Source: Candidatus Omnitrophota bacterium (GTDB taxonomy: Bacteria; Omnitrophota; Omnitrophia; Omnitrophales; Aquincolibacteriaceae). Taken from it: DNA of 64,000 bases. The notes below the pieces were generated by a model. The model had not been told where the DNA came from, did no database searches, and saw nothing but the letters and a program-made list of their open reading frames with translations. Location: NCBI GenBank assembly GCA_020632475.1, contig JACKFM010000001.1, positions 272,125 through 336,124 of the forward strand. The letters are read 5' to 3'. Position 1 is the stretch's first letter, and each line of letters opens with the position of its first letter. Made by a program: the position numbers and the translations under genes. This document shows positions 13,226 to 61,735 of the stretch, in pieces.

Positions 13226-16200
13226 ATGCTTATGCAAAAAACAAAAAAACAATATCTGAAAATCATCGCGGTGTTAACAGCCGTTGTCTTTACATTGACA
13301 TCGCTTGAACTGCAGCCTTTGGCTCGAGCGATGCAGGTGGCTCCGGCGGCTGTTTCAGGTGAGATCTCCCCTCATTCTGTGTTTGAATTAAACCTTCCAC
13401 CGGAACTTGGCGTGATTCAAAACCTCATCAGCGGAGACCGTGGGGCCATTGTCCATTTACAGGCAGCGCATGGCAATTATGACGCACAGAAAAAAATTGA
13501 AAATATCCTGCACTATCTCAAAGATCAATACGGGATGAATCTTTTATTGGTTGAAGGAAGTGCGTTTAAACTTCGGCCTGAGAGAATTCGCTTTTTCCCC
13601 AAACAGATGAATTTGAATAGGGAGATTCTTGAGGGGTTAGCGCACAAGGCCCTGGTGAAGGGCGCCGAGCTTTTTCTGGCGGAGGATAAAGGAGCCGAAG
13701 CCTACGGGATTGAAAATCTTGAGACCTATAAAGCCGATGCCGAGGCCTTCCGGTCTGTTATGGAACACCGTGAACAAATCGAGAATTTCCTGAAACGTCT
13801 GCATCAGGACATTGAGGCACTTAAAGCGCAAACGCTCAACCCGGTTTTGAAAAATTTTTTACGTGAGGCCGAACGCTATTTTCAAAATACGACACTGCTT
13901 GGCGACCGGATTCATTGGCTGGCCGCTCAATCTAAAGATCAGCTGGAAATAGACTTTTCAAATGTGATTTACCAGATGGATTGGCCGATGCTTGTGCGTT
14001 ACTTCGCTTTAAAGACAGTTGAGGGAAAACTGGACTCAACTGCGTTTGAAAAAGAACGCGATGCGTTCCTGGCAGTATTGGTCGGGGACAGGGCCGAAGC
14101 CCTGCCTGCCGGACAGGCGGGCCTGTCCCCGTTGGTCACAAAACGAGTCACGACTCTGCTTACTGAACCTATATCCGAAAACCAACTGCCTGACCCCGAA
14201 ACCGGCCTTCTTTTTGAAAAAATGGCCGAAGCGCTGCCGTTGAATTTTGATTATGACGCTTATCCGAATGTGAAACTTTTTATCGGGCATTTGATTCTGC
14301 AAAGTGAGATCAAAGCCGCTCCTTTATATGCTGAAATCGACCGTCTTGAAAATCAAATTTTAGAGAAACTGATCCGTACCCCCGCTGAGCGTGAAGTTGT
14401 TGAGAAGATCAAACAGGCCAGACTGCTTGAAAAGCTTTTGCATCTTGAATTAATGCCTGAGGAATGGAAAAAACTGCAGACCGCAGACTTGGCGACGGGG
14501 AGAAAAGAGACGGGGCGACAGGGTGAAGGGGTGACGGGGAGTGAGTCTGTCATTCCAGCGGAAGCCGCGCCATCCGGCGGACAAGCAGGAATCCATAGTA
14601 CAACCGAGCCTTCGGCCTTCGACCTTCTGCCTTCCCTCTCTGCTGAGCGGCCGTCCGTTCAGTCCTCCCGCCACACAGAAGGCGGGCAGGCAGCCCTCAG
14701 CCCTCAGTCCTTTGATATCCCCGAAGACATGCAGACGATTTATCAAAACGCGTTGGAGTTTTACCGCCTGGCCGAAAAACGTGATGAAGCGATGCTTGAA
14801 AACATTGAGGCTAAGCTGGCTGAGACCGGAAAGAATAAAGCCGTCGTGATCACCGGAGGTTTTCACTCGCAGGCTTTTTTTGAGCATTTTCGTGAAAATG
14901 GATACAGCTACGCTTTGGTCTCACCCGAGATAAAAGAACTCAGCGGCCGTGAAGCGTATGTCGAGAGTATGCTGAAAAATTCGTCGGCCCACAGGCGACA
15001 AACCGCAGACGACGGACTTGCGACAGAGATTGCTTCGCCTACGGCTCGCAATGACGGTAGTCTAAGTATCATTCCTGCGCAAGCAGGAATCCACAGTACA
15101 ACCGAGACCTCTCGGCCCTCAGCCCTCAGCCCTCAGTCCTCTTTAGAGTCACTTTTCCTCGCCCTCTCGCGTCAGGAAATTGAACAATCCGGCGGCAACA
15201 CACGCTGGCTTTTTCAGCAGGTGCGTAATGAAATTAGAAATGTGCTTAAACGTCACGATTTGAAGGCTCTTGATCTGAAATCTGAGTTGAGGACGGATGC
15301 AACGGATGAATCCGCATCTGCAGCTGCTGCAGATACAGAGATGTTTGCGCCTGAAATTACATGGATCCGTCAAGCTTCAGGTGAACAGGGCGATCAGCCT
15401 TATCTGATTCGTCTAAGGCTTGAACAAAGCAAAGCTCTTTCGGGGGGTACCGGTTTTCAGAACCGTTACCTTGTTGAGGTGGCGGCGCTTGACCAAATGA
15501 TGGATATTGATACGGTTCAAAATAACCCTCGCCTTTATGCCGGAAGTATTTCCTTGACTTTTGACTGGCAGGGAAAGCTGATTAAGAACGAGCAGTTTAA
15601 TTTAATTTTTTTGATCGGAATCGACCTTATTTTTAACGAGATTTTGAAAAAAGATATTCAGCCTTTCATTTTGCAGAAACTCGAAAGCCTGACCGGAAAA
15701 GCTTTTAATGAGACCAATGCCGAACTGATTGATGGTGCGGCATCGTTTGATGATGTTTTGAGACATGACCGGCGCTTGTCGCCTGAGCGTGACTATAACG
15801 CATTAACCCCGGGACAATTCAGGAATACTTTTTATGCCGGTTATGAGAGCGGCCGTATTCAGCATGAGTCCATGTATGAGCAATGGAAAGCTACGGGTGG
15901 AACTGAAGGGGAAGATAAATTTCATATCGGTGGAATGATCATCCTGAGAAAAATAAATGGTAAATGGTCTTTTCTGCTCGGTCGCCGAAATAAAACCGGC
16001 AAACCTTTCTACCGTGACTATACCATTCCTGTCGGCAAGAAAGAATCCCGGATTGGCCTGGGCCTGGAATTTGACCGGTTTTTTAACCAGCGCAAGCTTG
16101 AAAAATTGAAAACGATAGGTCTTACGCTGCATGACGGTGAGATCATGGATCCCGTCGAGTTTATTGCTGAGGCCGCGTTGCGTGAAACGATTGAAGAAAC

Positions 16201-19200
16201 CGGAGCAAAACACGATCCTCTTTACGGCCCTACGGTCTCTGATTTCGTAGCCCGGCTTAATGACTTTGAAGGCTACGATCCCAGAGTTCTAATCAGTCTT
16301 TTTGTTTATATTGATGAAAATGATTCCCCGGATGTAAACGAAACGGAGGAGTTGGTGGATTACCGGTGGGTTCCATTGGATGTGATCCTGATATCCGGGG
16401 ATCCCGGTGAGGCGGTTCAAGAATTTCTCGGTCCCGGAGAGCATCTTATCAGGGAATTTAGAGAAACAGGCCTGTTGCATTTTCAAAAGATTTTGCGCGA
16501 TGCGCTTACTCCGTGGACCAAGTTTCCCTCTAAAACAGAATTACGTATAGAACCCGGCTTGAATCTTAAAAGTGAACTCAGGTCCGGCGAAGAATTCTTG
16601 GCGGCGCATCAAGAGACCGTCGGGACTTATAGCGGGCAGTCCATTCTCTTAATCGGAAGTATGAATGACGGCGACTTAGCACGCTCAATTGCCGAGGCAC
16701 TGATTGCCGGATATGAGAACTTTACGCTACGTCTTTTTGATCCCGATGACGGACAAGTGGTTCAGGAATTTGGGACATCACTGCGCCAGGGTTTAAAACA
16801 GGGGGTTACGGTTACAGCCACCCGTGAGGTTAACGAAGCGCTTAAAAAATTCGCAACGCAACAAGCGACGATTATTATCAATGTCAGTCCGCATGAAAAA
16901 CCGTTTGACGGTTTTGAAAATGTTCCCGAAAGTGTACATGTTTTAAAGGCTACAGTCACGAGCGACGGCAGTGCAACTCAGGATGTTGAGCAACCGTCCC
17001 CTCAGCCCTCAGTCCTCAGTCCCCAGTCCTCTGCTTTAACTGAGCCCTCTCAATCCTTTATGGCCAAATCAGCTTTTGAAAGGAAATTGGAGGCTTTAGC
17101 TGAGCCCGGGTCGGTTACTGAGCGGAACGATGATGGATGGAAAGAGATCGCTGTCTGGTTTTCTTCCTATATGATTGAAGAAATACCCGATGAAGAACTT
17201 TCTGATCTGGATAAAGAAGCCCGTGAAATTTTTATGCGGAGCCTGACAGTAAGCGGCGCCTATAAGGATAACCGTCCCAAAGCAATCACGGCATTTACAA
17301 ATTTAAAAAAATCCCCTCAAGGAATTAAACAATTTAAAGATTTATTTGCCGTTCATATTGCCCACATCAATCATATCATCAAGGCATTGCGTGAAGAGCG
17401 TATTGAAGAACAGGGAGAGATTCCTAAGGCCGGTGCTTCGGATGAGGAAAGACAGCGGCATGATTATAAACAACTTATACGATCCGATGAAAAGAGTGTG
17501 CAGTATGAATTTATACCGAACTTTTTTTCAGCAGGGATGGCCGATGATGGGGAAGATCCCCGAAATGCTGAATCAAGGTTCATTCTCAACCCTTTTTATT
17601 TTTATCGTGAGTCAGGACTGCATGGGGTCACTGATCCCAGTGTGACAGCTGCGCTGCTAATTGATCGTGACAATCCGGTGCGGAGCATTCGTGTGATCGA
17701 AAGTGAAGGACATCGGTCCTTGCTTTTGGAATTCGAGTCGGATCAGACATTGCTTACCCCCTACGGAAAAAAGAAGAGCAGCTATCCCATACCCGGAGGG
17801 TATCTGCGGATGTTTGTTCTGAAGCAAAACGAGGTTGATGATTCCGGCTGGGAGGCGTTCGGAAAAAATATTGAACAGGACCTTGGAACATACACTTTTG
17901 GCGAAGATGAAGATGTTCCGGCGAAAAAACAAAAGCTGGAAGCCTTGTTTGAAAAAGTGACTGCCGGACAAGTTTTGGTTCAGGATCTCTACACACAAAC
18001 GACTCCGCAATTAATTCGCAACTTTTCAGATTACATGGGGCGTAGTGCGGATGAAGCAAATGCGATTTATTTTCACCATTGGGCAATTTATGAGGGGAGA
18101 AAAAAAGATAATCCCGAGAGTGTGACGCCGGTTGCAATTGACCGTGATTTTCTTGAAGAGCATTTTCAGGCCTGGAAAGAAAATAAACCGGTTCCGGATA
18201 TCCCCCTCAGGGCTGTTACCGGAGAGGGGATGGAAACGGTCACGGAACATGAGAGATGGATTGAAGAAATACTTGATCCTGAAAACGGGTGGAATCAGTT
18301 TGAATGGCTTCAGGCGCTTGATGCTGTCTTGCAGTCTCATCTGCCGGAGGTATGGGAGAGTACTATTGCGAGTGGGCCAGGAACGATGCAGTTGGCTGAA
18401 AGCGAATTTCAGACAGGCGGAGGGGCGGAGGATGCCGGTGAGCCGCTTTTGGGAACAAGTTCGTCTATGCTTCCCGGTTTTGAAACCCCGGGGCTCTTTC
18501 AACCGGATGAGCCAAGGAATTTTCTTCTCGCCGAATCATCTAAAGTATGGGAGTTGAACGAATACGAGCGAAAGGTTGTGGCTGAAGTCACGGCTGAAAA
18601 CAAGGAAGCTCTTCGAGATATTAAAAATCGCTTAAATTATAAGATAGCGGAACCTGAAGAGGTTCAGATTTATCTGCGCGCTTATGCGGCAACTTTAAAT
18701 CGCAAATTGAAATCTTATCGACTTGATGCCGAACAAGGTTTGCCGGGCACAGTCGAAGACAATGAAGCTATTTTGGACAGGCCTCTTGAAGAGTCGATAG
18801 AGGCTTATCGGGATGGGATTCGGCATCTTGAAAGACGCCAGGAGTTCGGCACCTGGCTGCATCTTGCTTCCGGCGGACTTGTTGTATCCGGCTCGGAAAC
18901 TGATTCCCGCGCCGCCTTTAATCCGGCCATTTTACTTGCTTTACGAAGAGCAGGCTTTGTGCCGGGGTACCCGGTTCGTGACTTTAATGCGCAGGATTAT
19001 CTTTCAGAACATAAAGAGGCTTTGGATGTCCATCAAAATAAAAATATTTTGATAGTAGGCTTGTCTTCCAAAGAAAGCGAAAAGCTGAGTATCGCTTTGG
19101 CCGAACAATTCGAAACGGAAGGAATCACGATTACACTGGTTGATGAAGCCACAACTCCTGCCGAGGCAAAAGATCATGAAAAAGCCTTTAGAGAGTCTTA

Positions 19201-22200
19201 TCCGAACCTTCATCTTAAGGTAATTACTAAGCCGGGAGAGATTCAAGGTGCGTTGTCAGAAGCCGGTTTGATTTTTAAAACTCATGATAGTGAAAAGCTA
19301 TTTATTTCTGAACAAAAAATTCCTGAGGGAGTCAGAGTTCTTGAGGTGCCCTTAGCCGCTCAGCAAACCATAGAGTCGCTTTTGGATGACCGTATCCGGC
19401 CGGAAAAACTGAATGTTCATAACCCTTTGTCGCTCGGGCGTGTCAACCCTATCCGGCGTATTATCGCGGTTGAGGGAAGAGGTAAAACTCCGCCGCACCT
19501 GGTGGTGGAATTTTCAAGCCCTGCGGGCGGTTATTCCTCGAAATTTATCCGGTTGAATATTCTTCACGAATCGCTGCCTGAAAGCCCCCGGGAAGATGAG
19601 ATGACCGATGCTTTTATGAAACGTGTTTTTGAGTACAACTATGCCGTGTTGCAGGGCTTTGAAATTAACGGAACGGAGTCGGCAGAAGACCGAAAAAGAA
19701 TTATTGACGGATTAAAAGATTTGGCCGCTCAAGGATTGATTCTGGCCGAGACCCGTTATGAGTTAAAACATGATGAGGAACATATAGGGCGTTTTGCCGA
19801 TTTTACCGCCAGATCAGAAACGGAAGCAAAAGCCATTCGGGCTTTTTATCCGGCGATATACGCGAGGGACACCTTGGCCACTCACCGTATGAGATTGGCC
19901 CAAAAGCTGGGTTTTAATCTAGGAATGTATGGTCCGCAGACGGCGGCAATTTTTCTTAAGCGGGTTCATATGATTGATGTTCATCCGGAGCTGAGCATTC
20001 TTCGGGATGAAGCCGAATCGAAGGGGTTCTTTGCGCCGCTGATTGCCTTGAGTGTCGCCGCCGAAGATGATGGATCGATTTTATTGGGCGATGCGAATGC
20101 CGAAATAGATTCTTTTATGGCCAAGGTTTTGAATGTTATTGGAAAAGCCAGGCGGCCTTCAATTGATTTGGTCGGGCGGCTTGAAACCGTTGAAGCATTG
20201 ATTCAAACCAAAGCCGAATCGGATGCTGCCGGAACTGCCAATTCAAAAGCATGGATCATTGATACCGGTGATCCTGAGGAGGACAGAACGCTTGCCCGCG
20301 AAATTCGTTACATCTTCAGGCTGGAAGTTCTTTATCGCCTGACTTATGAAACATTTCACAGTGACAATCTTATCAGGGGAACTCATGCTGATGGTACGTC
20401 GATGCGTGTTAAGGTTTGGAATGCTCTTTCGCAGAAGGCAGAGCAGATATGGCACAGTGATACTACGTCAAGCCGCATCTGGATGCTTGCTCTAAATGTA
20501 AACAGAGATAAGTGGGAGTCGTTTGTGGCTGAGCAGTGGCCCGGCTTTTGGCAAATTTTTACCGAGCCTGAAACCGAGGATAATGGAGCTTTTCTTGCCC
20601 AAAATTCCGGTGTTATGGCGATTAATCAGCGCAGACTGCTTCCTGCGAGTTTGCCTGAGACGTTGGGTAAATTTTCAAAATTCACAGAAAGAGATATGCC
20701 TAGAGAAAAAACCGGTTTTGATATAACCGCAATTCCAAACAGAACAACATTAACGGCTGAGGAAATTAGGGCCGGGATAACCTTGAAAAAATTCCCGGCA
20801 CAAAAACTGAACGGGGGATTTGAAGCTATTTTGCAGAGTTTGAAGCGGTCTGGCATTGAAGATCTCGCCAGATTTAAACGCAAGGAATCCAGAAAGATGC
20901 AGGCTTTTCTTGATGACATCGTGGCTATCCGTGAACTTTATGAAGCCGGGCATTATGAAGAGGCTCTAAGAATTGTGAACCGCTACGTTGCCTTTCAGCC
21001 TCAGCCAGCCTCTGCAGCGGATGGGGCCGTGGTTAGCGGGGACAGGGCTGAAGCCCTGTCCCCGGATTCAACGGCAGCGGCAAGTACAGCCGCATTACTC
21101 ACCGGTACCGGCGATGAGGGTGCTCACATTGATTGGCGCGGGTACCTGCCCGAGGGGGATTTGATCGAACCTCCGGTTGATGGCGCGGCAGAGGCCTTAG
21201 GTGAGATGCAGACGCGTTTGATCGAAAAAGTTAAGCGGCGTTCAGGAGGAACCTCCGTGGTAACCATTCTTCACGACTTGGATCGTGCCGGACATATTGG
21301 ACAAACATTTAATGTCCTTATGGCCGCGCTTGCAAAAATTGCAGAGGGCCATGAGGATGACGACACTGCAGCGGCACGTGCGCTGGTGGATGAGATTAAA
21401 ATTTTAATCCCCAGGCAAATTAAATCAGGGGCCTCTGCAGACATTGATGCCTTTGAAGAAAAAACACATGAAATGTCAGATGACGATGCGCTTAATGAGC
21501 TTGAAGTCATAGAAACCGATTTTAGTCAGACGGTTGACGTTTTGAGAGGACCGGTGGCAGGAGAAATTTTTAGTGATCAGTTGGATGAAGGGACCCGGGC
21601 TTTTGAACAGAGCCTTGAGTATCTTGGTAAAGTCCGCCGTGTTTTGGAAAGTTCAATTGCAATGACCCATGATGCAGCTAATCATCCCGAAACTGTTCGC
21701 GGTCTTTTACAATCAAGCGCGGAACTTGCCGGTGAATTCAACGCTGAAAATCAATGGGGGATACGCCTCGGGTTCGCGAGGGCTGCTTATGCACGCCGTT
21801 TTACCGACGCGGCTCTTGCGGGTCAGACGCAAACACAGACCGCAGACTTGGAGACGGGGAGAGTTGGAGACGGGGAGACCCGCCAAAAAGAAGTCGGGCA
21901 AGCGGGGCGAGAGTCTGTTGGCGTCGATGCAGCGGAACCGACACTTCAAAAAAGCAGAAGACAGCTTTTGGCTGAAACACAGCCTGAAGTTTCCAAACAC
22001 GATCCGGAAAACCCGGATGAATTATGGACTTTTGTCCAAAGTGAAGGGTGTGAAGGGTGCATGATTGTGCAGTTCACACCCGGAGGCTGGCTTTACTCAA
22101 CTGAAAGTCAGGCACGTGTGCGCGAGGCTTTTAATAAAAATGATCAAACGCGGGCTAAAAAAAGAGATGCTGACACAGTGTCGAATGCTATGGCGGCATA

Positions 22201-39994: not shown

Positions 39995-39995
39995 T

Positions 39996-40053: not shown

Positions 40054-40213
40054 GGTTTCATTGGCACCACGCAGTTCTCAAACTGGACAATGCGCGGTAC
40101 AAGTATCTCTAACAATTTTGAATCAATAACACATACTTTCAAAATTGAAGAGATACTAGCCGCGTAATATTTTTTGCTTTAAAAGTCTGCATCCCCTCAA
40201 TAAGATACTTTCC

Positions 40214-42565: not shown

Positions 42566-42573
42566 CCCAAATA

Positions 42574-42599
42574 AGGGACAGGTCTTTAGACCTGTCCCT
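42574..42599 (+). terminator. perfect hairpin agggacaggtc-ttta-gacctgtccct after the epimerase gene (intergenic member of repeat family C)
   Basis: 11-bp perfect stem with a 4-nt loop, 9 nt after the stop. A second hairpin atccgcc-acaaagaa-ggcggat follows at 42621-42645 and matches the core of intragenic family A. Confidence 0.45.
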
Positions 42600-42710
42600 T
42601 AAAATGCGTAACTAAGGAAATCCGCCACAAAGAAGGCGGATTAAATTCGCACAAATCATTTATGCTTCTTTCGGTCGCATAAATGATGTGCTCATTTAAG
42701 GAGATTTCCC

Positions 42711-43133: not shown

Positions 43134-43147
43134 AGTAATCGGACAGT

Positions 43148-43879: not shown

Positions 43880-43880
43880 C

Positions 43881-43938
43881 AGGACTGAGGACTAAGCGTA
43901 GAGGACTGAGTCCTCAGTGCTCATAGCTCAGTCCTTTG
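43881..43938. repeat. intergenic cluster of inverted ctcagtcct units (family B in reverse orientation), likely terminator
   Basis: aggactgaggactaagcgtagaggactgagtcctcagtgctcatagctcagtcctttgag. ggactgag (43903-43910) pairs with ctcagtcc (43927-43934), followed by ttt. The same 9-mer in forward orientation is tiled through both giant ORFs. Confidence 0.5.
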
Positions 43939-43954
43939 AGTTAAGGAGAGATGA

Positions 43955-54500: not shown

Positions 54501-57500
54501 TGGCCTTGCATGAAGTAGATGTGCAGGGAGCCCGTTTTGTGCGCACCGGATCAGGGCTTATTGTTGACCGCATTTTTGGGTTCCGCCGTAACGGTGATGC
54601 CGAGATCGATACCCTGCGCCAGCGCATCTGGACAGATCTGGGCCGTATTTTTACGGATTACAACCGGCAGGACCATGCGGTTGAAATCTTTTACCGTGAA
54701 AAGGAAAAACCCTATCAATCCGTCCGTCCGCCGACACGGTTAAAACAGGATACTCACATACAGTGGTTTCATGACCGCAATACCGACGGTGAGGAGACCT
54801 CTGTTTTTACGGTTAAAACCACAGACCGGCCTGCGCTCCTTCATGTCATCGGCCGTATTTTGAATACCCGGGGTTATAGTGTGATTAAAGCACCGATCAC
54901 CACCTATGAGCCGTTTACCGACAATACGTTTTATATCAATAAAGACGGGACTTTTTTAAGTGATGCCGAAAAAGAAGCGCTTGAAAAACTGTTGGTTTCT
55001 ATCCTTGATCAACCCATCATCAACATTGCGGATATTAAAGGGGACAGGTCTTCAGCCCTGTCCCCTGACCAGGTACCTCCCAGCGCAGCTAATGACGCCG
55101 CGTCTGGACATTCCGAGTTACGAATTACCATGCATTCCGATGAGGCGGAGGTTGCGGCATGGATGGATGAGCTTGCAGCGGAGATTACAGATGCCGGTGA
55201 TCGTAAAGCCGCCGAGGCGTTTATTACTGTTTTTAGACAAAATCCCGAACTTGACCGTAGCGAAATATCCTATGAAGGCTGGCATCAGTTCGTTGGTGTT
55301 TCACGCGATGATGCCGGTACAAGCTATGCCCATATTCTTCTGGATGCCGCTGTTCATTTTCCGCGCAAATTAATCCGTGCCGCACTGGTGCATGAGGGAA
55401 CGCACATTTTGAATAAGGATCTGCAGGATGCGCAGCTTGCAGCCTTTTTAGCGGCACAACAAGAATGGGCTGCAATGACGGCCCGGGGCGGAGCTCAAAC
55501 GCAAGACGATGTGGACGTTCTTTTGGAACCGCTTGCAGACTCCATGGCGCTAACGATGGAAGACGAGTGGCGGGCCTATCAGGCCGGTGACCGTGTATTC
55601 TTGTCATCTCTTGACGGGTCGGTCGATGATTTTATTCAGGCACTGCCTCAGCCGGATGCACACGCCCCAAGAGTTGATCAGGCGAGGTATCTGATGATTC
55701 GTGGGTTGGTAGAAGATATTCGGGTGCGGTCAACGCAGCTCGAGACTTATGAACTTAAGACTAAAGCCACTGCTTTGCAGGGAATTCTTTCGATTGATAA
55801 CCTTTTAGCCTTAAACCAGGGATCGCGGGCAGAGCTGATCAATCTTTTTCTGATCATTGTGGCAACTAACGGCGAAGGCGCGAGGTATGTGACCTGGGAT
55901 CAAAGTCGTGAATATCTTCATCAGACGACCATTACTGATATTCAGGGTCTGACCCGATGGCTGCTTTCTCAGCCGCGTGCTCAGCAGATCGGTCAACTCA
56001 TCGCCCATTACACCAGGACGGAGTCGAGAGCTTATCTCAGTGATTCTGATTTTGTGACCCATGAAGCCATTGAAGAAAGCGGATATGGTCAGGAGCTGCG
56101 CCGTAAATTCACATCTGCTTTTGACCGGATTATGGCAGCAAGTGTTCCAGCGGCGTCGCAGGATCTGCATACCGGAATTAAGGCGGTACTTTATACCGCC
56201 TATGATAAAGCCCCTCAGATTTTCCTAAGCATTGATCCGAACATGGAAGCCCGGGCAGCACATGTCATTTATCTTTCTTCGGAAAGACAATTGATTCTGA
56301 AATTTCCATCGGTGGAAAAAGCGCGCGAAGCAGATGAGAATTTTCTGATCGGTGCGATCCTCTATGCTGCCGGCGTGCCGAGGACAGGGCATCCGTGGAA
56401 TATATGGACGTTTAATCCGAGGATTCGTGACAATACCTATAATATTCCAGCCGCAGGCGTTACTTACCGTGTGACAAACGATCTTTTGAATTCTCTTCAG
56501 CAGGTGATTGCTCAAAACATCCCGTCGGCTGCAGTGGGAACCTCAGCGTCGCCGGCTCCAAGGAGGAGATGGCAATTTCGCCGTGTAGCACCCAATGAGC
56601 GTGTGGACGTTCCTCCCCGTCAGAGGAGCGGCAGCCCTTTGCCAGCAGCTGTTCCACCGCGAGAATCTCCGGATGAAATTGAGGAAATCCGGTTTGTTAA
56701 TTTTCGGGGCAATGAGAATTGGCAGCAAAACGCTGAGAAAGTCATCCGTGAAGCATTCCGAGCCATTGCAAGAACGCCAACTGAGAGTTTGAGTGATCAG
56801 CGTCTTCAGGGTGTGCTTCAATTCATTCATGAGATGATGGAAATCCGCGGGACATCCAGTCATGTGGTTTTAGCGGTTGAACCGAATCTCACCGGTGTTG
56901 CCGGTGAGGTGGCTTCGCTCGGACGTCTCCCGGCTTTTTTTAGGATCATGCTTGATCGTGACGGTCAAAATAACGGGCAGAAGCGGTTCGCCCGCGGGCC
57001 AAGAGGGAATTTGTTTGATCAGAAGGTTTTTATTATGCATCTTCGAAAATGGCAGGTGCTTGCCTCAGCTGACGGCACTCCTGCAAATGACGTTCAAATT
57101 TATGACGGCATCAATGTCAGACAGAGCATTGCCACTCGCCCAGGAGAACAAATTATTAAGTTCGACCGTGATTTTCTGATCAAGGCCATGGTTCACTCTT
57201 TGCTGGATCAACAGCATTCCTATCCCTGGATCATGGCTGAAAAATATCCCCAGATTCAGTTTAATTCGGATACGAATGCGATTGTCCTTCCCGGAACAAG
57301 GCGGGTTTTTGTCCCGACACCGAGTGAAATCGTTCAAATCGTTGAACACATCATTCAATTTGCTAATCTTCACCCCGAATTGCGCGTGAGCAACGCAGAA
57401 GAGCTGATTGCCTATGCTCGTGATCATAGGGCCGCACCTGCCGAAAATGTGACGGATTTAGCGAATAAAATTGTGCGACTTGGTCTTGGATTTAGCGCGA

Positions 57501-60500
57501 CGACAAGAGATGATCAGACAATATCGGTCACACGTTATGCCCCGTCGTATCTAAGTTTCGAATTAACCGTGGCTGAGTTTAATGCAGGCATTGCTGTGGA
57601 CGACACGATTCCGGTAGCTCTTAATGCGCAGAGCTTTGCGCCTGTGGTTATTCCTCTTATGCAGCACATTGCCGGGCAGATGGATGCTGGACAAATTCCG
57701 GATTTTACGCAGTTTTTTGCCCTGGAACAACGTTTCTCGGATGCTCGCGGATGGCAAGAGGTTGCTCAAAAAATAAAAGACATTGTGACAACTGGAAAGG
57801 TTGAACGTATCACATCCCCAAAGAACAATGAAATCTTTATTGAAATGCTGCGCGTGCTAAATCACGATTGGTTGATCGATCACAATATGGTTATGGTTAG
57901 AGTAACAGGTGCACCTGCTGACAGAAACGGACAAGATGCTGTAAGCGCGGCTGAAACTTTAAGAGTTGCTGAGGTGATCGATAAACGGGTTAGAAAACTG
58001 GCGGGGCGGAATGTGCCTGTGTTAGTGGTTAACCGCGTTTTTGCACAAAATGAGATGCAACCCCTTGGCTATAATACGTCACTTGATTTGCAGGGGATGG
58101 TGATTCTTAATCAACCTCGTTTGAACACCGTGGCGTTAGCGCCTGGGACCTGGAGGAGTTCGATTGCTCCCCAAATGATTTCACATCCATATGGCCAAGC
58201 GCTAAGAAAAATTTATACTGGACATCGCAAGAGGTATGCCGAACGAGCTCCGTACTTTTTACTTTTTCAAAGAGAAAGAGCTTTAGAAGAGTACCGTCAC
58301 GCAATTGATCATTTTCGTATTGAAGATTCTATGGATCGACGCTTTTTTACCATTAGAACGGATTATCTTGATGAGTTTGAAAAAATAGCGATTCAACCGG
58401 AAGGGATTTTAAAGGGCATTCTGTCAGATCAATCATTGATTTCCAAAGCCGGGAAACCCAAATATCATTTTCAAAATGCCTTTTTTGAATTACAAGGGCA
58501 GATTGCACGCGGTGATCATGCTGAGGACCCTACCTTTTTATTGGCTTCATGGCTGCAGCGGTTGGCTTCACCTGTAACGGCTTCCTCTCATCATTATGAT
58601 GCAGCGTATTATGGTCTGTACTTAGCTATTTATTATGATTTCATCACACAAAGCGGTTCCGAATCGCTAAATCAAAGACCTCTCCTTGGTGAATTTCTGA
58701 CTTGGCAGCAAACCCTCATGCCGCAGCTGAGCCAGCAATTGACGCAATTCGTTAATGATCCTGAACGTTTCAGACAAGCTTTAAAAACGATTCACAAATA
58801 CGAATTCACCGGATCGCTTGAAGACCTCGGGGAAGACGTTCGAGTGCCGGAGCCTAATGCTTCGGAACCTTCCAGCGCAGCTAATGATGCTGCGTCTGGT
58901 CGAGCACCGGACGCCGATGCGTCGGTACTTCCAAGCGCAGCTAATGATGCTGCGTCTGGTCGAGCCGAACAGCGGTTTCAGGAAATGATGACGGATTTTG
59001 TTGCGCTTGTGCGTGAGAAGGATTTGATTCGTTCTGAACCGGAGGAAGGGAAGTATCAATTTGAAGAGCGAGGCGCAGGCGGTTTTCGTCTCTGGTCGGT
59101 CAGAGAGAATGGGGATTGGGCTGGAAGCGAGACATCAAACCAAGTGACAGAACTCATTTTTGATCAGCTGGAAAATGTGTTAACACTTAAAGTAACAGGT
59201 GGTGTGGATGGAGACATTGCCTATGAGTTTCGTCCTGACGGCGCGCGTTTCTATGCAGATCACAACAAAACCGGAGAATTTATAGCCCTGGACGCTAAAA
59301 ATCCGATTGTGAATTTTGGAGTTGATGAGCTAAATCGTATTTATTTGATTTATTCTGATGGCTTGATGAACGAATTTTTTGCTAAAGAAGGGCAGAGCCC
59401 TCTGGGAATTTATCCAAGCATCCTTGGAGGCGGGTTTTCTCTTCAAGATGTCAATACAGCGACGAGGTTTACGAGTCCGGATAGCCTTGTGAAGGTTAGT
59501 TTTCTTCATGAACCTTCTCAGGATAGAGACTGGGGGGATGAGATTTTTGTGATTGCAGATGTCAGTTTTGATGAAGAAACTTTCCCGAACGCTGAAAGCC
59601 GTAGCGAGTATCAGCAGCTTTTTAAAGCACATGATTTTCTCTCTGCGACCATTAAAAACCTTGAGCTGGATATTCTTGGGGCACCGATCTCGCAAATCCA
59701 CATCCGAAAAATTAATGATGAACTCAATTATCAAATAAGCCGCGTGACATTGACCAATATGACCGGTAAACAGGCCTCTTTTATTCTGAAACGGGGTTTT
59801 TCAAGTACGTTGAAAGATGAACAGGGGCTTGATGCTTATCAGAAAAAAAAGGATGGGTTGGTGGATCCTGATTTTAGAGGGTTTCCCCTTATAGGTGATT
59901 CGCGGCAGATTTCAGGTGGAGCCTATCACTTTTGGTCTGTTGAAGATTGGGGGGACCAACAGCCGGACAATGAGAGAGGTTTTGACTACTTTTTCCGTCT
60001 TTTTCGTGAGGGGTGGGAACCGCACATCGAGCAGTCTTTTGAATTGGATCGATTAAGAGTCGTTGAAAAAGATGGCCACCGGCATATTGTCCTTTCAGAC
60101 TATAATTATTTTAGGCAAGAGCGGCAGAAAACGCGGCTTTTTGCGACACGGTTGATTCAGGGTTTAATTCTAAATAATCACCAAGCAGGCGCTGATGTTT
60201 TATTGACATTAGGCGCTGTAGCCAGCCGCTATTTAAAAAAGGAACTGATTCAGGAGGTCTTCGATTCATATCGTACAGGCGAGTCACCGGTTCCGCCGGA
60301 ACATTTGCCTGCAATAGGGGATTTGAATGAGGTGATGCAGGATGCTCCAACGGCTGATTTGCTTGATGCTTCGGCAGCGGCTCCTGAAACCCCGCTGCCT
60401 GTACTTCCGCATCCGGTTGCGGTGATCAAGAGTGCTCTTGAAGAGCTGGAACGTGAATTTCCGCGTATCCAGGAATTAAGACAGGAATTTGTACGCCTTA

Positions 60501-61735
60501 AAACATTTTTTGAAGACGTGGAGCCGGGGCAGGATGATTTTTCAGTTCTTCAGGTTTTCAGACTTGCCGCTCTGGCAGACAGGTGGGATGCTTTCTGGGA
60601 TAATCATATTCGTTATCAAATTGGGCGTCCTCAAGATTTTGGTGCAGACAGCGGTAATTTTGTCAGGCATGAACTGATGACCGGAACCAGACACGAATGG
60701 GGTTTTGGAGTTCGGAATCTGGTTGCACGTCTAACAGAACAGTCTATACGTGATCCGCTCAATAATCTGGTTTCTAATCAATTGAAAAGGCTCTCGACTG
60801 ATTTGTTGTCGCATGTTCAGGAAGTTCAGACGGTTGGAGAAGCCTATGGACTTTTTCTAGCGCGTGAATCTTTAGGCAAGGTTCCCGAAGTCAGGTTTCA
60901 AGATGCAGACGGCGTATCAGTCAATTTTTTTAGCGGGATAGGATATCTTAAAGCAAAAAAACGATTCGATCTGCCTGTTGGTAGTGTGGCCTATGATGAA
61001 GCTCAGAACCTGATTACGTTTACTCTTCCCAAATCGGAATTGCGTATAGCACCGCCCGCCGATGCGTCGGTACCTCCCAGCGCAGCTAATGACGTTGCGT
61101 CTGCGTACTCTCGTGTAACTGCGCCCGAGTCACGAGCGACGAGCGACGAGTTCCGCCGCATAGAAGTCAACTACGAACTCTTCGACACAGATGCCGAAGG
61201 AACGATCACCATGCCGGTTGCGGCTTTTGCCGAAATTGCGCAGCAGACTGTTTCAGCTGATGAGGATTTGAAAGCGGAGGCGTTAGCAAAAATGGATGCC
61301 CTGGCTGTGGCAGCCAACCGCTGGCACAATGTTCAGTTAATTTTATATGCCGAAGGCTCGGAGTATGACGCCCAAACCAATTATTATCTGGAACAATTCC
61401 GTCCGCTGGGGAATGTGACCATTACACCGCAAAAACTTGAAGAAGCTTTATCGGTTCCGCGCGGCAAGGAACATCATACGCCTGTCGACATTTCACCCGA
61501 AGGGCGCATTCAGGATCATGACTATGTCGGCGGAGAACTGGTTAAAAAACTGAAATTTGTGAAGCTGCGCAAAAATCCGGGAGATATTCTTTTCGGGCTT
61601 TTGGCTTCAATTACCGGCGGTGATCTTCCGGGTGTCGTCACAGGTGAGGACGGCAACCTGGATGACCTGACCGGTTATGCCACCAGTCAGGCCCAGGCTT
61701 ATCTTGCCCGGCAGGTTGTGGCCTGGTCAGCATAA
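45530..61735 (+). CDS. giant multidomain protein 2 (5,401 aa) with signal peptide, conserved N-terminal domain, TM hairpin, GGDEF-like palm, GlnD-like NTase-HD-ACT-ACT module and HExxH motif
   Basis: Uninterrupted 16.2-kb ORF. Domains, in order:
- N-terminal MKHPFFNFKRFIAITVALCMVLTDRSAVSYAQA.
- First roughly 450 aa homologous to giant ORF 1 (shared ...GGFH... block).
- TM helices at about 47335-47500.
- RIGGDEVVFVGD palm-like motif at about 49020-49060.
- NTase motif AGANARGEYPTFDYD (G-x-R-G-E...D-x-D) at about 50985-51060.
- HD motif VFLHDSAKS...H at about 53470-53700.
- Two ACT-like segments at 54440-54910.
- HEGTH at 55391-55405. Confidence 0.9.
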   Translation: MKHPFFNFKRFIAITVALCMVLTDRSAVSYAQAASAQFASEAQAVNTKLASAQFVLPGFNLPSELGFIEEVYSAPREKEQPSPSALSPQPSVLPSKTVIYIQDAHDSLEAQEHIAEMIRLFVHDNGIKTVLEEGYDGKVPTDEYFGSIKDPEIKEEVSYFLMDKLRIGGAEYTHINRQEDFKLIGADSIELHRENVKAYQKNSVYLKQVQKDLKEMFERIERMANVHFSKELKQWMKNKKRYDAGQLDLLSYLKRTAGLLGDSALPYPNILVLLSAEETKNARAIEKAKEIHSAQLFEEIGEFENSVAEKFLTHDRDRDIFKYYKALSLMLRLSDIEVTPEEYEAAKGTLKNFDTRRMAEFIVADTKHTAVLSTEWEDKIKNAIRFYEIAHQRDDSIEKHLEDFLASDQQTAVLVFGGFHRDKIQAIMRAKGISFVTLQPAISSVSQTHQEYYKQLMSSGYLDFEKTLHLDSEQGFSGSNIPLPQASRMSRTLLVWDVPGYGRVVEGLAETARVLKNRKPDMDRPLLLRQMARGLQARSSAFEQETVPGHAELRNQEASPQNEPPESSVRLRMDEPQGFAAPRIRGHLQAYERRLRAQALRRKLAELGLLFTAVALAVTAVIWSVVDAETEIRATDVIWMTIGAFAASVWVLYRFLSERDFRISSEQERINFERILNGTKDGESVIRSVEMLEAYAQSPDRSQRSDIIRSAERVKDEILERNPLLTIVDQEKITEGDKIVIFEIPGTGHEGLGIKEMNALFGELLTDNFLAEVKKSLYAMVRASASVRGISITPLYSTHKEHAFVVRGDVSQDFLRNEIQKKLVEAMNRILLTSDDLPYRRIIEEKKLDQNGEDLFEIHFGMSRVEEDSEEGRLTANIRAKQALLISRYRNVWDNNRDPDLVLYSHENYAAVVDELASIRRRLLANEGAALFATGENEAFGQYFFLRPGAANILRKKVEWGELSTEEKKVFHHVEIYQLAQRYFELLNLQDVIKKWQMDEAEAFREIREIRGILETLDFLVDLLVSGAQGRVRPEEMPLDVIGQQRLGLLRKYALNDARNRKAYSQNVFHAKAAEMANPVIVGLDVIGMGPMNYEAFDGELQQIDKQLKSGNPVTDAEVQAIQRQAADSVTLRRDHILDEIRDQLQETYREVNLTPPGELIARIGGDEVVFVGDSSVLHGAVLDRFLTGLRERIRSNLGIHVRIAADSLIQDYRRRFTRTTRSDPKMMAHARALSLQDTNVNHVLKPMEKKGLTGELHGHGGAIVVRAKRWGLNRWNRVVETDQGTTRIDAEAEIILSNWHFNPGLLTTRRTELRSSANDSEVYPQPVEFFTHPWTLQERWPFAPSALLRFPGQLTALKRSVFPALLKRQGDSKKLKMSFLATNTGEEIAGYLYALSLAYDAHTEWGQAGKLDLSIVANDLHADILEEAQRRLSGKSPFVFNGDFIGGDQEAEMTIYEPLLRPLPSSFEPFLRAINPIKSRIQKSFSFISGSMFRSFRLFKAIVGSDIIVLNAAPIPSWKPLLWLFGKILTRGERPPVIITTNRQLAEGLSGYQVLGLRDLGWAGSYLAIPKWLQEDFDIEPLTSMILNRAELRAASDQTLRQQLLGELHSEPDAQNPVLQTLFMFDALKRVVQGEPSARNPVFQLRSDDILKAILGNRKAIEVFENPVTQENLKRLEGLPYLYRLAVNGIATEPEHYGRLFIRAGESRLAPEESFRQALEMGLKTVSSGTPQEIRDEKLKKVKRFLDYHFLKVFLRYWNREYAPSLPTMLEGVIPDTVKRNQMLMANITHLSGAVLQAVYDVNHEYLSAQYGEPDSTGSIVLAGANARGEYPTFDYDAVVLYEKDGRTPGGPSGTLSHAEFYNRLAVLIRQSFEGDPQSGYAGMGREMDSRYQYTIFKSFLNAWGVEENRPMWAVSINRAEAALKSSQPVGLILSFLDLMPGAGDMDLAERFIQSTQEYLADEKHLYTGMAQTLSAYQFMRQKTAETSPVLDIKGTAGGLRSFHYFLWFLRLYRRLLFMRAGQPRAAQKPASGLNFLDNLTVLEREFSGTSVRNELTAYYLYLINLRLTMDLFYARNSKQLPTDSLALAYFAFYNATLYRLAEGASPLGFDPAQALPLQEEFLRQLKQVMTRIDGLIDGLMNDLLSGNFDQVNMHLSQWQSSPELIDAADLRQTAASLVETSREELDQAAQKHVEQLVEDRTGLSPQKMIIFVTAFLMRTRNMTQVAAERSALWYSENRPREFERMAHKEEKHRKAELRNDTETLAGVRGEIERWDVNYIVKKKHFGLQLGRRLNMASGPGSVLEFDFLKRMMRLMLPEAEGISAATPPGGTMPDYVRSQEEFEQMLDVLEQTGILKEPVIPRGEFETESQRLMRANKTLAENFDFFSRNHLHDMTLTDDRNPLVRDYKTRIPEHYLQSERAFQTVIPLVLLMYERRFPGEVETQTLKDLDDHFVLQKKKTLHFDWERGFFEGESEVVALKPSEGAAVQFFAVHPELTFKAFEYGVPDVNILEGLRLNRDAFEKWIHLQRASPSGVGSAGFQVLVQSFVHLLGKASGDQHAFSKTIWYLHRFGLLNAYIREYEPGKIGNLIADPAVHEFTTDQHSLYHFEVLDKIGPDDPAAFSLIRDFYLKIENSPEDSHERKLLAALRLSVFLHDSAKSFFFAGSADHAIQAAQNAVPRYLKEMGFDDETIETTAWVVRNHMVLNSYAYRRLVDHPEEISDAVERMVWDPGITPERLRLLYLISLSDYFSLQPLKDYPSLNPHFELGLRVLPDAESEGKWTSLERMHQLYQALASIVGETDPVSREDNMARIRALRTNEMQSFWNRFFAETASQVLEHLTEDALYERYLAAARKGTGEVRENEIRRNAAYTVEHLYQDYFSEILDDGARTPEIQAEVQRRASSEFAQLFYRGYIQSFDEGYLKNLTLQEHLRRYLFTVHLDVLRKRGYKKPIILFNPGFDNVSERQHEFIIGLTTDERGVFEDVTGVLALHEVDVQGARFVRTGSGLIVDRIFGFRRNGDAEIDTLRQRIWTDLGRIFTDYNRQDHAVEIFYREKEKPYQSVRPPTRLKQDTHIQWFHDRNTDGEETSVFTVKTTDRPALLHVIGRILNTRGYSVIKAPITTYEPFTDNTFYINKDGTFLSDAEKEALEKLLVSILDQPIINIADIKGDRSSALSPDQVPPSAANDAASGHSELRITMHSDEAEVAAWMDELAAEITDAGDRKAAEAFITVFRQNPELDRSEISYEGWHQFVGVSRDDAGTSYAHILLDAAVHFPRKLIRAALVHEGTHILNKDLQDAQLAAFLAAQQEWAAMTARGGAQTQDDVDVLLEPLADSMALTMEDEWRAYQAGDRVFLSSLDGSVDDFIQALPQPDAHAPRVDQARYLMIRGLVEDIRVRSTQLETYELKTKATALQGILSIDNLLALNQGSRAELINLFLIIVATNGEGARYVTWDQSREYLHQTTITDIQGLTRWLLSQPRAQQIGQLIAHYTRTESRAYLSDSDFVTHEAIEESGYGQELRRKFTSAFDRIMAASVPAASQDLHTGIKAVLYTAYDKAPQIFLSIDPNMEARAAHVIYLSSERQLILKFPSVEKAREADENFLIGAILYAAGVPRTGHPWNIWTFNPRIRDNTYNIPAAGVTYRVTNDLLNSLQQVIAQNIPSAAVGTSASPAPRRRWQFRRVAPNERVDVPPRQRSGSPLPAAVPPRESPDEIEEIRFVNFRGNENWQQNAEKVIREAFRAIARTPTESLSDQRLQGVLQFIHEMMEIRGTSSHVVLAVEPNLTGVAGEVASLGRLPAFFRIMLDRDGQNNGQKRFARGPRGNLFDQKVFIMHLRKWQVLASADGTPANDVQIYDGINVRQSIATRPGEQIIKFDRDFLIKAMVHSLLDQQHSYPWIMAEKYPQIQFNSDTNAIVLPGTRRVFVPTPSEIVQIVEHIIQFANLHPELRVSNAEELIAYARDHRAAPAENVTDLANKIVRLGLGFSATTRDDQTISVTRYAPSYLSFELTVAEFNAGIAVDDTIPVALNAQSFAPVVIPLMQHIAGQMDAGQIPDFTQFFALEQRFSDARGWQEVAQKIKDIVTTGKVERITSPKNNEIFIEMLRVLNHDWLIDHNMVMVRVTGAPADRNGQDAVSAAETLRVAEVIDKRVRKLAGRNVPVLVVNRVFAQNEMQPLGYNTSLDLQGMVILNQPRLNTVALAPGTWRSSIAPQMISHPYGQALRKIYTGHRKRYAERAPYFLLFQRERALEEYRHAIDHFRIEDSMDRRFFTIRTDYLDEFEKIAIQPEGILKGILSDQSLISKAGKPKYHFQNAFFELQGQIARGDHAEDPTFLLASWLQRLASPVTASSHHYDAAYYGLYLAIYYDFITQSGSESLNQRPLLGEFLTWQQTLMPQLSQQLTQFVNDPERFRQALKTIHKYEFTGSLEDLGEDVRVPEPNASEPSSAANDAASGRAPDADASVLPSAANDAASGRAEQRFQEMMTDFVALVREKDLIRSEPEEGKYQFEERGAGGFRLWSVRENGDWAGSETSNQVTELIFDQLENVLTLKVTGGVDGDIAYEFRPDGARFYADHNKTGEFIALDAKNPIVNFGVDELNRIYLIYSDGLMNEFFAKEGQSPLGIYPSILGGGFSLQDVNTATRFTSPDSLVKVSFLHEPSQDRDWGDEIFVIADVSFDEETFPNAESRSEYQQLFKAHDFLSATIKNLELDILGAPISQIHIRKINDELNYQISRVTLTNMTGKQASFILKRGFSSTLKDEQGLDAYQKKKDGLVDPDFRGFPLIGDSRQISGGAYHFWSVEDWGDQQPDNERGFDYFFRLFREGWEPHIEQSFELDRLRVVEKDGHRHIVLSDYNYFRQERQKTRLFATRLIQGLILNNHQAGADVLLTLGAVASRYLKKELIQEVFDSYRTGESPVPPEHLPAIGDLNEVMQDAPTADLLDASAAAPETPLPVLPHPVAVIKSALEELEREFPRIQELRQEFVRLKTFFEDVEPGQDDFSVLQVFRLAALADRWDAFWDNHIRYQIGRPQDFGADSGNFVRHELMTGTRHEWGFGVRNLVARLTEQSIRDPLNNLVSNQLKRLSTDLLSHVQEVQTVGEAYGLFLARESLGKVPEVRFQDADGVSVNFFSGIGYLKAKKRFDLPVGSVAYDEAQNLITFTLPKSELRIAPPADASVPPSAANDVASAYSRVTAPESRATSDEFRRIEVNYELFDTDAEGTITMPVAAFAEIAQQTVSADEDLKAEALAKMDALAVAANRWHNVQLILYAEGSEYDAQTNYYLEQFRPLGNVTITPQKLEEALSVPRGKEHHTPVDISPEGRIQDHDYVGGELVKKLKFVKLRKNPGDILFGLLASITGGDLPGVVTGEDGNLDDLTGYATSQAQAYLARQVVAWSA
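45763..45808 (+). repeat. family B repeat copy near the 5' end of giant ORF 2
   Basis: agagcaaccgtctccctcggccctcagtcctcagccctcagtcctg encodes EQPSPSALSPQPSVL. Confidence 0.65.
55038..55107 (+). repeat. composite: family C hairpin followed by a family E palindrome in giant ORF 2
   Basis: 55038-55066 is aggggacaggtcttcagccctgtcccc. 55075-55107 is cctcccagcgcagctaatgacgccgcgtctgga, which has the inverted arms cgcagc / gcgtct and ccag / ctgg. Together they encode KGDRSSALSPDQVPPSAANDAASG. Confidence 0.7.
58872..58963 (+). repeat. two tandem family E palindromic units in giant ORF 2
   Basis: tccagcgcagctaatgatgctgcgtctggtcgagc appears twice (58872-58906 and 58929-58963), separated by accggacgccgatgcgtcggtacttc. 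Encodes PSSAANDAASGRAPDADASVLPSAANDAASGRA. Confidence 0.7.
61058..61106 (+). repeat. family E palindromic unit in giant ORF 2
   Basis: gccgatgcgtcggtacctcccagcgcagctaatgacgttgcgtctgcg encodes ADASVPPSAANDVASA. It shares the gccgatgcgtcggtac leader with the 58914 copy. Confidence 0.65.

Follow-up and report, generated by a model that had tools for sequence, protein, structure and literature searches.

Two giant open reading frames (ORFs), g1 and g2, lie in a 64,000-nt stretch of DNA from a Candidatus Omnitrophota bacterium (GenBank assembly GCA_020632475.1, contig JACKFM010000001.1, positions 272,125 to 336,124 of the forward strand), referred to below as the window. Both are peppered with short repeat units that also turn up in the non-coding DNA between neighbouring genes, and the locus thus poses the question of how such units come to lie inside coding sequence: as DNA inserted secondarily, as duplicated parts of the giant proteins, or as structures or peptides maintained by selection. 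A reading of the window from its letters alone (the sequence-only reading) had described five families of in-frame palindromic mini-repeats and likened their behaviour to that of Rickettsia palindromic elements (RPEs). Here, we argue with moderate confidence that small repeat units of an Omnitrophota genome, comprising hairpins and arrays, have been secondarily inserted or expanded inside the giant ORFs.

Repeat families in the giant genes

Direct repeats in the window were detected by repeat finding and with Tandem Repeats Finder, and copies of each family were counted with nhmmer. The repetition is real: three or more occurrences were counted for 106 different 11-mers, compared with 1–7 in shuffled sequences. 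It amounts to about 30 copies from at least six families, with three to nine copies per family. The five families described earlier therefore stand, but not the ‘dozens’ of copies claimed for each.

Unit A (CCCGCCAMACAGAAGGCGGGCAGG, ~24 nt) occurs in the coding DNA of g1 as three good copies and one degenerate copy, and the 26-nt unit C as three coding copies, two in g1 and one in g2. B repeats the heptamer CCTCAG(T/C) in tandem at about nine sites (eight in g1 and one in g2). In D, a G-rich unit leads into 8-nt arrays built on the octamer GACGGGGN. E, ~56 nt long, forms a double hairpin; the string first written for it has no exact match, two matches at up to one mismatch and four at up to two. 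A caagcaggaat unit is present in two copies, and two families came to light that had not been listed before: an ATGGACT-type family at 22816 and 22879, and CGAGCGA heptamers at 22651, 35385 and 61126. By Tandem Repeats Finder, the arrays (CCTCAGT, ATGGACT and CGAGCGA, 7 nt; GACGGGGN, 8 nt) are short, at 2.4–4.7 units with 70–100% matches, and mostly imperfect.

Only A, C and E form hairpins. Compared with shuffled sequences, C folds at z = -3.3 to -6.6, A at z of about -3 and E at z = -1 to -3.7; in seven copies of C, 97% of the stem is paired, two pairs having changed on both sides. B and D gave no fold signal, and composite inserts folded whole did no better than shuffles (z about 0), so we no longer treat each cassette as a single large palindromic element. 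RNA folding thus bears out the word ‘palindromic’ for A, C and E, and not for the 7-/8-nt tandem arrays B and D. A scan of the whole window against Rfam returned no matches at E-values up to 1.

Units are also combined with one another. Arrays of CAGTCCT surround the A copies at 22737 and 28419, one C hairpin sits inside another at 14083-14131, and a cassette order of D, 8-mers, A and B recurs at 14473, 21832, 35179 and 39109. Over 70 nt, the A copy at 28419 is 87% identical to the 22711 copy, with unrelated flanking protein, and the copies at 22711 and 28393 include 49 identical bases within otherwise unrelated protein sequence. By class of gene, there are about 30 units in 43 kb of giant ORFs and none in 15 ordinary ORFs (~16.6 kb), save for the final codons of a VanY-family gene; our own binomial estimate for this contrast is p of about 6e-5.

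Pairwise differences among copies are spread evenly over the three codon positions (114:114:114 for positions 1:2:3), so the copies are related as DNA and not as selected peptides; nor did the same test point to purifying selection acting on the peptides they encode. Within coding DNA, each family keeps to one orientation and one reading frame, and only stop-free orientations are found. In reverse orientation, CCTCAGT and ATGGACT carry TGA or TAG in every frame, and the TAATGA loop of the E units at 58843-58958 places stop codons in both other frames. Five D copies share one frame (p ~0.01). All three frames of A are open, yet all seven coding copies (four in the window and three elsewhere, in four unrelated proteins from at least two phyla) use the RQTEGGQ frame; the other two frames would encode strongly basic peptides. 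That the units are ‘always in-frame’, as had been noted, is trivially true inside an ORF, and what holds beyond this is the single orientation and frame of each family.

Copies in non-coding DNA

The sequence-only reading had matched four non-coding sites to the coding units and named chance as the alternative. These matches hold in models and tests from which the sites themselves were excluded. With C modelled on its three coding copies alone, matches appeared at 5406-5438 (E=1.5e-5) and 42574-42599 (E=3.9e-4), and a B model built from coding copies matched both arms of 43880-43944 (E=7e-6 and 5e-4). The A core at 42622-42639 agrees with the 14668 copy at 17 of 18 bases, with any match found in 0 of 100 shuffles. 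A further intergenic copy, at 10100-10137, was tied by a coding-only model (E=1e-5) to the ATGGACT-type copies of g1 at 22816 and 22879, which adds a sixth family.

Intergenic copies sit at or just past stop codons; the C hairpin at 42572-42601, for example, begins 7 nt past the stop of an epimerase gene (41147-42565). The intergenic hairpins lack a following T-run and therefore do not qualify as canonical intrinsic terminators. Heptamers in intergenic DNA take the form of inverted arrays that fold into hairpins (43880-43938 and 10066-10138).

Insertion into a conserved domain

The first ~590 amino acids (aa) of g1 form a conserved domain, the homologs of which (26–44% identical) all come from Candidatus Omnitrophota metagenome-assembled genomes (MAGs) or unlabelled metagenome contigs. 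By BLASTP, g1 and g2 show weak N-terminal paralogy (21–24% protein identity); no long DNA identity was found between them. When the g1 domain was aligned with g2 and 11 Omnitrophota homologs, three repeat blocks appeared as gaps in all or most of the other sequences. The nested C hairpin of g1 (aa ~285–302) is a gap in most homologs, the g1 cassette at aa 417–496 is absent from g2 and from the 11 homologs, and the B heptamer block of g2 (aa ~71–92, nt 45764-45809) is absent from g1 and the homologs. The alignment thus shows at least three blocks that are secondary insertions into a conserved domain.

This result, together with the presence or absence of a 24-nt A unit in a lysyl-tRNA synthetase (LysRS) gene described below, bears out the earlier proposal of secondary in-frame insertion of hairpin units. 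The converse possibility, that the units are ancestral, conserved domain segments, is argued against by the gaps in the 11 N-terminal homologs and by the even distribution of differences over codon positions. The g1 insert itself, first put at about 85 aa and said to consist entirely of repeats, was confirmed at nt 14474-14713 and as lacking from g2; recognised units make up roughly three quarters of it.

An AlphaFold model was built on the N-terminal domain alignment. Its core is confident, with 10-residue blocks mostly at predicted local distance difference test (pLDDT) scores of 80–94; g1 residues 421–497 score below 50 and are modelled as coil, and confidence is lowered at ~290–300. The 417–496 cassette is predicted by this model to be a disordered loop.

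Three homologs carry inserts of their own at these loops. In P0001, this is an element of 95-107 nt whose inverted ends measure 18 nt (GTCATTGCGAGG ... CCTCGCAATGAC; z = -6.8), in frame at both loops of one gene (L121 5486-5579 and 5919-6025) and as a partial intergenic copy (2427-2442). This element resembles a miniature inverted-repeat transposable element (MITE) and encodes GRSNP...PRND peptides, of a kind that we take to be common in metagenome proteins. P0007 has a GC-rich hairpin insert, and P0015 a heptamer array on a contig that also holds intergenic inverted octamer arrays. All three inserts are unrelated in sequence to the window units, which argues that in-frame insertion of palindromic or short-period DNA has occurred repeatedly and independently within the phylum.

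Units A and C elsewhere

A metagenome scan for CCGCCANACAGAAGGCGGGCAGG found unit A on 14 contigs, in at least nine unrelated contexts with GC contents of 0.44–0.63. The shared block measures 23–25 nt, and the flanks are random right from its edges. Coding contexts comprise an ORF for a PD40-type beta-propeller (L126), a secreted protein in which A directly follows the signal peptide (L136) and a class II LysRS (L132). No match to A was found in viral contigs or in Rfam, and the A and C sequence strings gave no match in full-text literature.

The LysRS copy is the most informative. Against solved LysRS structures, the protein gives E of about 1e-150; the alignments have small gaps where A is inserted, in a variable region, and the nearest relatives of the protein are labelled Acidobacteriota. 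Among its best 40 matches, A is present only in an identical protein; the other 39 (68–83% identity) lack exactly eight residues, and alignment of the DNA with two orthologs leaves a 24-nt gap at A. The insertion is also present in an independent assembly; the records concerned are Ga0214473_10236037 and ERZ27256953. These alignments show A as what appears to be a discrete insertion, 24 nt long, in an unrelated housekeeping gene of another phylum.

Non-coding contexts of A include the spacer of a toxin-antitoxin-like gene pair (L129), a site beside a tRNA gene (L125) and a site beside heptamer arrays (L127). On L129, a gene for a tyrosine transposase resembling those associated with repetitive extragenic palindromic (REP) sequences, known as RAYTs, has the A unit ~450 nt downstream of it (NF047646, E=4.5e-14, below the curated cutoff). 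It is flanked by GTAG-type REPs (GTAGnGGCACGACATGTCGTGCC..TACAGAA), and besides the flanking copies there is another in frame inside the transposase ORF (REP copies at 3434-3467, 3741-3774 and 4191-4224). We considered this RAYT-like gene as the mobiliser of A and rejected it: the flanking REPs differ in sequence from A, and there is therefore no direct link between the two. On L125 (22-98 and 268-282), A is bounded on one side by the tRNA gene and on the other by a short stretch that directly repeats the tRNA 3' end (GTCGCCCCGAC), an arrangement like the edge of an integrated element, with more CCGCC/GGCGG hairpins in between.

The C pattern GGGACAGGNCNNNNGNCCTGTCCC, scanned across genome contigs, was found at at least 119 loci in many phyla. 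Among the matches listed, the 55039 variant, including its T-C mismatch, is present in three other genomes, and the 21037 and 42572 variants in contigs of Planctomycetota, Gammaproteobacteria and Brocadiia. One of the three genomes with the 55039 variant, the unrelated MAG L098, has the identical 27-mer of the 55039 copy, nested in a second copy and intergenic. C-type hairpins of several other phyla have GTAG...CTAC flanks, which the window copies lack. The centre of the GGGACAGG-N8-CCTGTCCC palindrome (L002-L120) is often fully palindromic among the matches listed, and these also include genomes with four to seven C-stem copies each, namely Caulobacter and one MAG each of Eubacteriales, an actinobacterium and Anaerolineaceae. 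GC-rich genomes with C matches have long spurious open frames, so ORF context is uninformative there.

The giant genes and their surroundings

Coordinates of the giant ORFs and of the units are given in Table 1.

Table 1 Giant ORFs and repeat units of the window. Position 1 is the first base of the window; z compares predicted folding with that of shuffled sequences.
Feature	Position	Strand	Remarks
Giant ORF 1 (g1), 8922 aa	13226-39994	+	From ORF list; carries A, B, C, D, ATGGACT-type and CGAGCGA-type units
Giant ORF 2 (g2), 5401 aa	45530-61735	+	From ORF list; carries B, C, E and CGAGCGA-type units
C-like hairpin	5409-5434	.	Loop includes the TAA stop of VanY-family gene 4587-5423; z = -4.7
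ATGGACT inverted arrays as hairpin, intergenic	10066-10138	.	z = -3.2; family of g1 22816 and 22879
C hairpin, nested form	14083-14131	+	-35.7 kcal/mol, z = -3.3; in frame, loop site 1
Composite insert, 240 nt, g1 aa 417-496	14474-14713	+	In frame; whole z = -0.16; order: D unit, 8-nt arrays, QAGIHSTTE unit, GCCTTCG heptamers, A hairpin, CCTCAG heptamers
A hairpin CCCGCCACACAGAAGGCGGGCAGGC	14667-14691	+	Within heptamers
QAGIHSTTE unit, copy 2	15080-15142	+	91% identical to 14582-14613; then B heptamer array
B unit	16985-17044	+	GTTGAGCAACCGTCC (VEQPS) plus 4.6 CCTCAGT heptamers
C hairpin, perfect 12-bp stem	21037-21064	+	Encodes GDRAEALSPD; z = -6.6
D unit in tandem duplicate	21832-21880	+	Period 16 nt
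Degenerate A unit CCCGCCAAAAAGAAGTCGGGCAAGC	21879-21903	+	Directly after D unit; same frame
Largest low-complexity block of g1	22577-22945	+	AAGTCCGG-type units, CGAGCGA heptamers, A and B, ATGGACT-type x2
A hairpin	22737-22761	+	CAGTCCT heptamers on both sides; z = -3.1
A hairpin	28419-28443	+	CAGTCCT heptamers on both sides
Lone D unit	31444-31477	+	Directly after KSELR motif
Composite cassette	35179-35434	+	D, 8-nt arrays, B heptamers, CGAGCGA heptamers; whole not palindromic
Composite cassette	39109-39316	+	KTELR, D unit, two B units
C hairpin, intergenic	42572-42601	.	Perfect 14-nt arms, z = -6.3; compensatory changes relative to coding copies
A-type hairpin TCCGCCACAAAGAAGGCGGA, intergenic	42621-42640	.	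z = -4.3
B heptamer inverted arrays (AGGACTG... / ...CCTCAGT) as hairpin, intergenic	43880-43938	.	z = -3.0
B unit in g2 EQPSPSALSPQPSVL	45764-45809	+	In conserved N-terminal domain; alignment columns ~96-115
C hairpin in g2	55039-55066	+	Encodes GDRSSALSPD, then E unit; z = -4.9
E unit, second hairpin only	55078-55106	+	Directly downstream of g2 C hairpin
Two adjacent E units	58843-58958	+	Each a double hairpin encoding PSAANDAASG
E unit	61048-61150	+	After KSELR, then CGAGCGA heptamers

Ordinary housekeeping genes, including that for tryptophanyl-tRNA synthetase (TrpRS), and sugar-modification genes surround g1 and g2. A Pfam search of g1 found a NUDIX domain, some tetratricopeptide repeats and almost nothing else, and BLASTP revealed no protein-level internal repeats within the giants. 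The two genes fit what has been published on giant multi-domain genes of Omnitrophota; the two current papers on such genes nowhere mention palindromes, hairpins, linkers or disordered regions. Beside the giant-gene homolog P0010 (L140 2568-6352), gene order is the same as in the block between g1 and g2 (window 41147-45244), namely epimerase/dehydratase, cupin, short-chain dehydrogenase and methyltransferase, which points to a conserved sugar-modification neighbourhood around these genes.

Both giants also contain a peptide motif, K/R-[ST/A]-E-L-R (for example at nt 15278, 16532, 16568, 31430, 37253, 39095, 49460 and 61031). K[ST]ELR itself occurs eight times in g1, with 1.2 expected, and five times in g2, with 0.5 expected, often just upstream of D or E units. 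Its codons vary between copies, as expected of a motif selected at the protein level, and the similar RAEVR and RSEVR recur in Omnitrophota homologs. The motif may mark a module boundary or processing site. We rejected the idea that K[ST]ELR marks the N or C termini of formerly separate genes: the window’s ordinary genes do not have it at their ends.

A short sequence, GCTTGGGTGCTGC(G/A)TA, is common to the 3' sides of both giants (40039-40056 and 61736-61752), 45 nt past the stop of g1 and directly past that of g2. The g1 copy falls within a strong hairpin region (39995-40085, z = -4.3), and, read on the opposite strand, the 3' region of g1 bears a weak likeness to the E unit (E=0.014). Downstream of g2 lie two inverted AGCG-type heptamer blocks (61750-61790 and 61880-61915), ~100 nt apart, whose sequences (TAAGCGT... 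/ CTAAGCG...) are similar to the CGAGCGA heptamers inside both giants. A separate intergenic repeat of ~100 nt has two copies, at 3744-3842 and 8950-9048 (84–95% identical), located 45–90 nt upstream of the + strand genes 3935-4252 and 9101-10018. Its predicted fold is a single long hairpin with 37 pairs, one of them showing a compensatory change; the ends are TTTCACCAG...CTGGTGAAA, and Rfam gave no match. The repeat may be either MITE-like or a structured leader.

Comparison with known repeat systems

RPEs are palindromic elements that lie between genes and also in frame within unrelated genes, where one characteristic frame yields a tolerated peptide (PMC10969869); they measure about 100–150 bp and are confined to Rickettsia. 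The window units resemble them in that A is found in g1, LysRS, the PD40 propeller ORF, the secreted protein and non-coding DNA, C in g1, g2 and two intergenic sites, and in that the inserts fall where the conserved-domain alignment has gaps and where the model shows coil of low pLDDT. They differ in their length of 24–56 nt, in their occurrence in Omnitrophota and other phyla and in their concentration in giant ORFs, and B and D are tandem arrays, not palindromes. Judged by size and host, the window units are not RPEs. For the hairpin units, ‘RPE-like in-frame insertion’ was nevertheless largely right as an account of behaviour; it was overstated on copy number and palindromy, and at 24–56 nt the units are closer to the small dispersed repeats (SDRs) of cyanobacteria.

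SDRs, as reportedly described by Elhai et al. in 2008, are hairpins of 21–27 nt located in heptameric short tandemly repeated repetitive (STRR) arrays, with nested self-insertion. Their stems are said to be kept by compensatory change, with no associated transposase, and the elements are said to belong to one cyanobacterial subgroup. Likewise, A (24 nt) and C (26 nt) fold at z = -3 to -6.6, and the C stem shows compensatory change; A lies within CAGTCCT arrays and, on L127, beside heptamer arrays; and C is nested both at 14083-14131 and on L098. The differences are the host (Omnitrophota, and Acidobacteriota for one A copy), the in-frame location within ORFs and the cross-phylum sharing of one unit; the comparison with SDR1-8 is by description only. 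Size, hairpin form, embedding in heptamers and nesting make SDR/STRR the closest analogue.

REPs and their inverted doublets (REPINs) are short dispersed palindromes of 20–40 nt, usually downstream of genes, mobilised by RAYTs and bearing a 5' GTAG (PMC3116915). The C-type hairpins of other phyla with GTAG...CTAC flanks are similar. In contrast, A and C in the window lack the 5' GTAG, occur as single units, not inverted doublets, and lie partly inside ORFs; inverted pairs are seen only for heptamer arrays in intergenic DNA, and the 64-kb window has no RAYT gene. MITEs are non-autonomous, hairpin-forming repeats with terminal inverted repeats and target-site duplications, and can give rise to in-frame fusions. 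The P0001 element is of this type and sits at the same loops, whereas the window units are 2–5 times shorter, with no inverted ends beyond the stem and no clear target-site duplication. With contingency loci, the window units share in-ORF tandem repeats of a period that is not a multiple of three; they differ in that their tracts are short, imperfect and numerous in one intact ORF.

Proposed explanation and alternatives

In the explanation we prefer, the genome would hold hairpin units (A ~24, C ~26 and E ~56 nt) together with 7-/8-nt tandem arrays. Between ordinary genes, these would lie as single hairpins or folding inverted arrays, usually just past stop codons. Inside the giants, a copy would survive if it kept the frame, lay in a stop-free orientation, encoded a hydrophilic, flexible peptide and fell in a disordered loop or inter-domain linker, and selection would remove copies that break the frame, bring stops or damage folded domains. 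A and C, and probably E, may be miniature hairpin elements that are non-autonomous and copied in trans, each as a single-stranded hairpin, for which a REP/RAYT-like or IS200-like tyrosine transposase would be the likeliest candidate machinery; movement through RNA and reverse transcription, or template switching, would be alternative routes. The arrays would grow by replication slippage and might provide preferred landing sites for hairpins, and whole linker cassettes (D, 8-mers, A, B) may also have been duplicated within g1. Long disordered linkers would make giant proteins unusually permissive, and the effect on these proteins is probably near neutral, amounting to extra floppy linker.

Several observations weigh against this explanation. 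The 64-kb window is the part of the source genome examined and contains no transposase or reverse transcriptase, so the way in which the units move is wholly something we infer. The source genome is absent among the C matches listed, and the C stem (GGGACAGG/CCTGTCCC) is frequent across many phyla and often takes the form of a simple terminator-like hairpin, so that some of the likeness between C copies could be convergent. In the LysRS alignment, part of the right arm of A (GCGGCAGG) may have been present in the target beforehand, which makes the exact inserted bases and the mechanism ambiguous. The giant genes have no close relatives in the searched databases (best 41–44% identity), and four mid-gene segments around isolated units, used as a chimeric query, gave no homolog matches, so that insertion status was assessed in the N-terminal domain alone. 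Finally, D (five to six copies) is confined to g1 and E (four copies) to g2, and with their fixed order and frame, intragenic cassette duplication fits these two as well or better.

That last point leads to the reading in which an ancestral disordered linker cassette (KSELR, D, 8-mers, A, B) was duplicated, gene-converted and left to decay with no mobile element involved, the intergenic look-alikes being incidental. The recurring cassette order, the constant frame of families with other frames open (as for the five D copies) and the restriction of D and E to one giant each all speak for it. It leaves unexplained why A, B, C and the ATGGACT family are also found in non-coding DNA of the window, why A is sharp-edged in at least nine unrelated contexts elsewhere, including the 24-nt LysRS insertion, and why inserts lie inside a conserved domain and not in linkers alone; as a full account, we judge it fairly unlikely. 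Less probable still, in our view, is that the hairpins are RNA structures under selection, serving as 3'-end or stabilising elements after genes and as pause or processing sites in giant mRNAs of 16–27 kb. The position of C hairpins at or just past the stops of two ordinary genes would suit such a role, as would the compensatory changes in the stems, the strength of the folds (z down to -6.6) and the location of the g2 C and E units after the end of an ACT-like domain. On the other hand, there is no T-run and no Rfam match, and neither the non-folding B and D nor a lone A inside a LysRS or PD40 propeller gene is accounted for.

Two further explanations strike us as very improbable. If the units were peptide motifs or linkers (ALSPQS, RQTEGGQA, QTADLxTGR, PSAANDAASG) selected as protein, their constant frame and orientation within each family, their place in hydrophilic, probably disordered segments and the genuine peptide-level motif K[ST]ELR nearby would follow naturally; but differences show no third-codon-position excess, long stretches are identical in DNA without synonymous change, and the same DNA is found in non-coding regions, in both orientations there. 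Nor do the 7-/8-nt arrays look like slipped-strand phase-variation tracts or drivers of recombination between the paralogs, a possibility raised in the sequence-only reading that gained no support. Their periods are not multiples of three, so that one unit gained or lost shifts the frame, and B arrays are present in both giants. Yet the arrays are only 2.4–4.7 units long and mostly imperfect (70–100% matches), more than ten such sites line a 27-kb ORF that is nevertheless intact, and g1 and g2 are just 21–24% identical as proteins, with no long DNA identity. We also rejected, as a main explanation, that in-ORF hairpins are relics of intergenic spacers after gene fusion, because the three blocks lie within one contiguous conserved domain; gene-fusion relics at true domain boundaries are possible.

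Implications

Beyond the insertion of units within one Omnitrophota genome, we put forward, tentatively and with some doubt, the idea that A is actively mobile in trans across phyla (Omnitrophota, Acidobacteriota and other sediment or groundwater bacteria), with giant genes acting as permissive sinks in a process that feeds gigantism. If so, A would be among the smallest mobile DNAs known, and such elements and arrays would build linker and contribute to gene gigantism. A 24-nt unit unchanged across phyla, together with a clean insertion in an aminoacyl-tRNA synthetase, offers a searchable handle on the movement of tiny elements. On a practical note, the units probably fragment short-read assemblies of giant genes.

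To our knowledge, in-frame palindromic insertion is textbook for Rickettsia alone, and tiny hairpins in heptamer arrays for some cyanobacteria alone. Finding both behaviours together in Omnitrophota giants suggests a more general route to disordered protein segments, and one source of raw material for the extreme gene length of this phylum.

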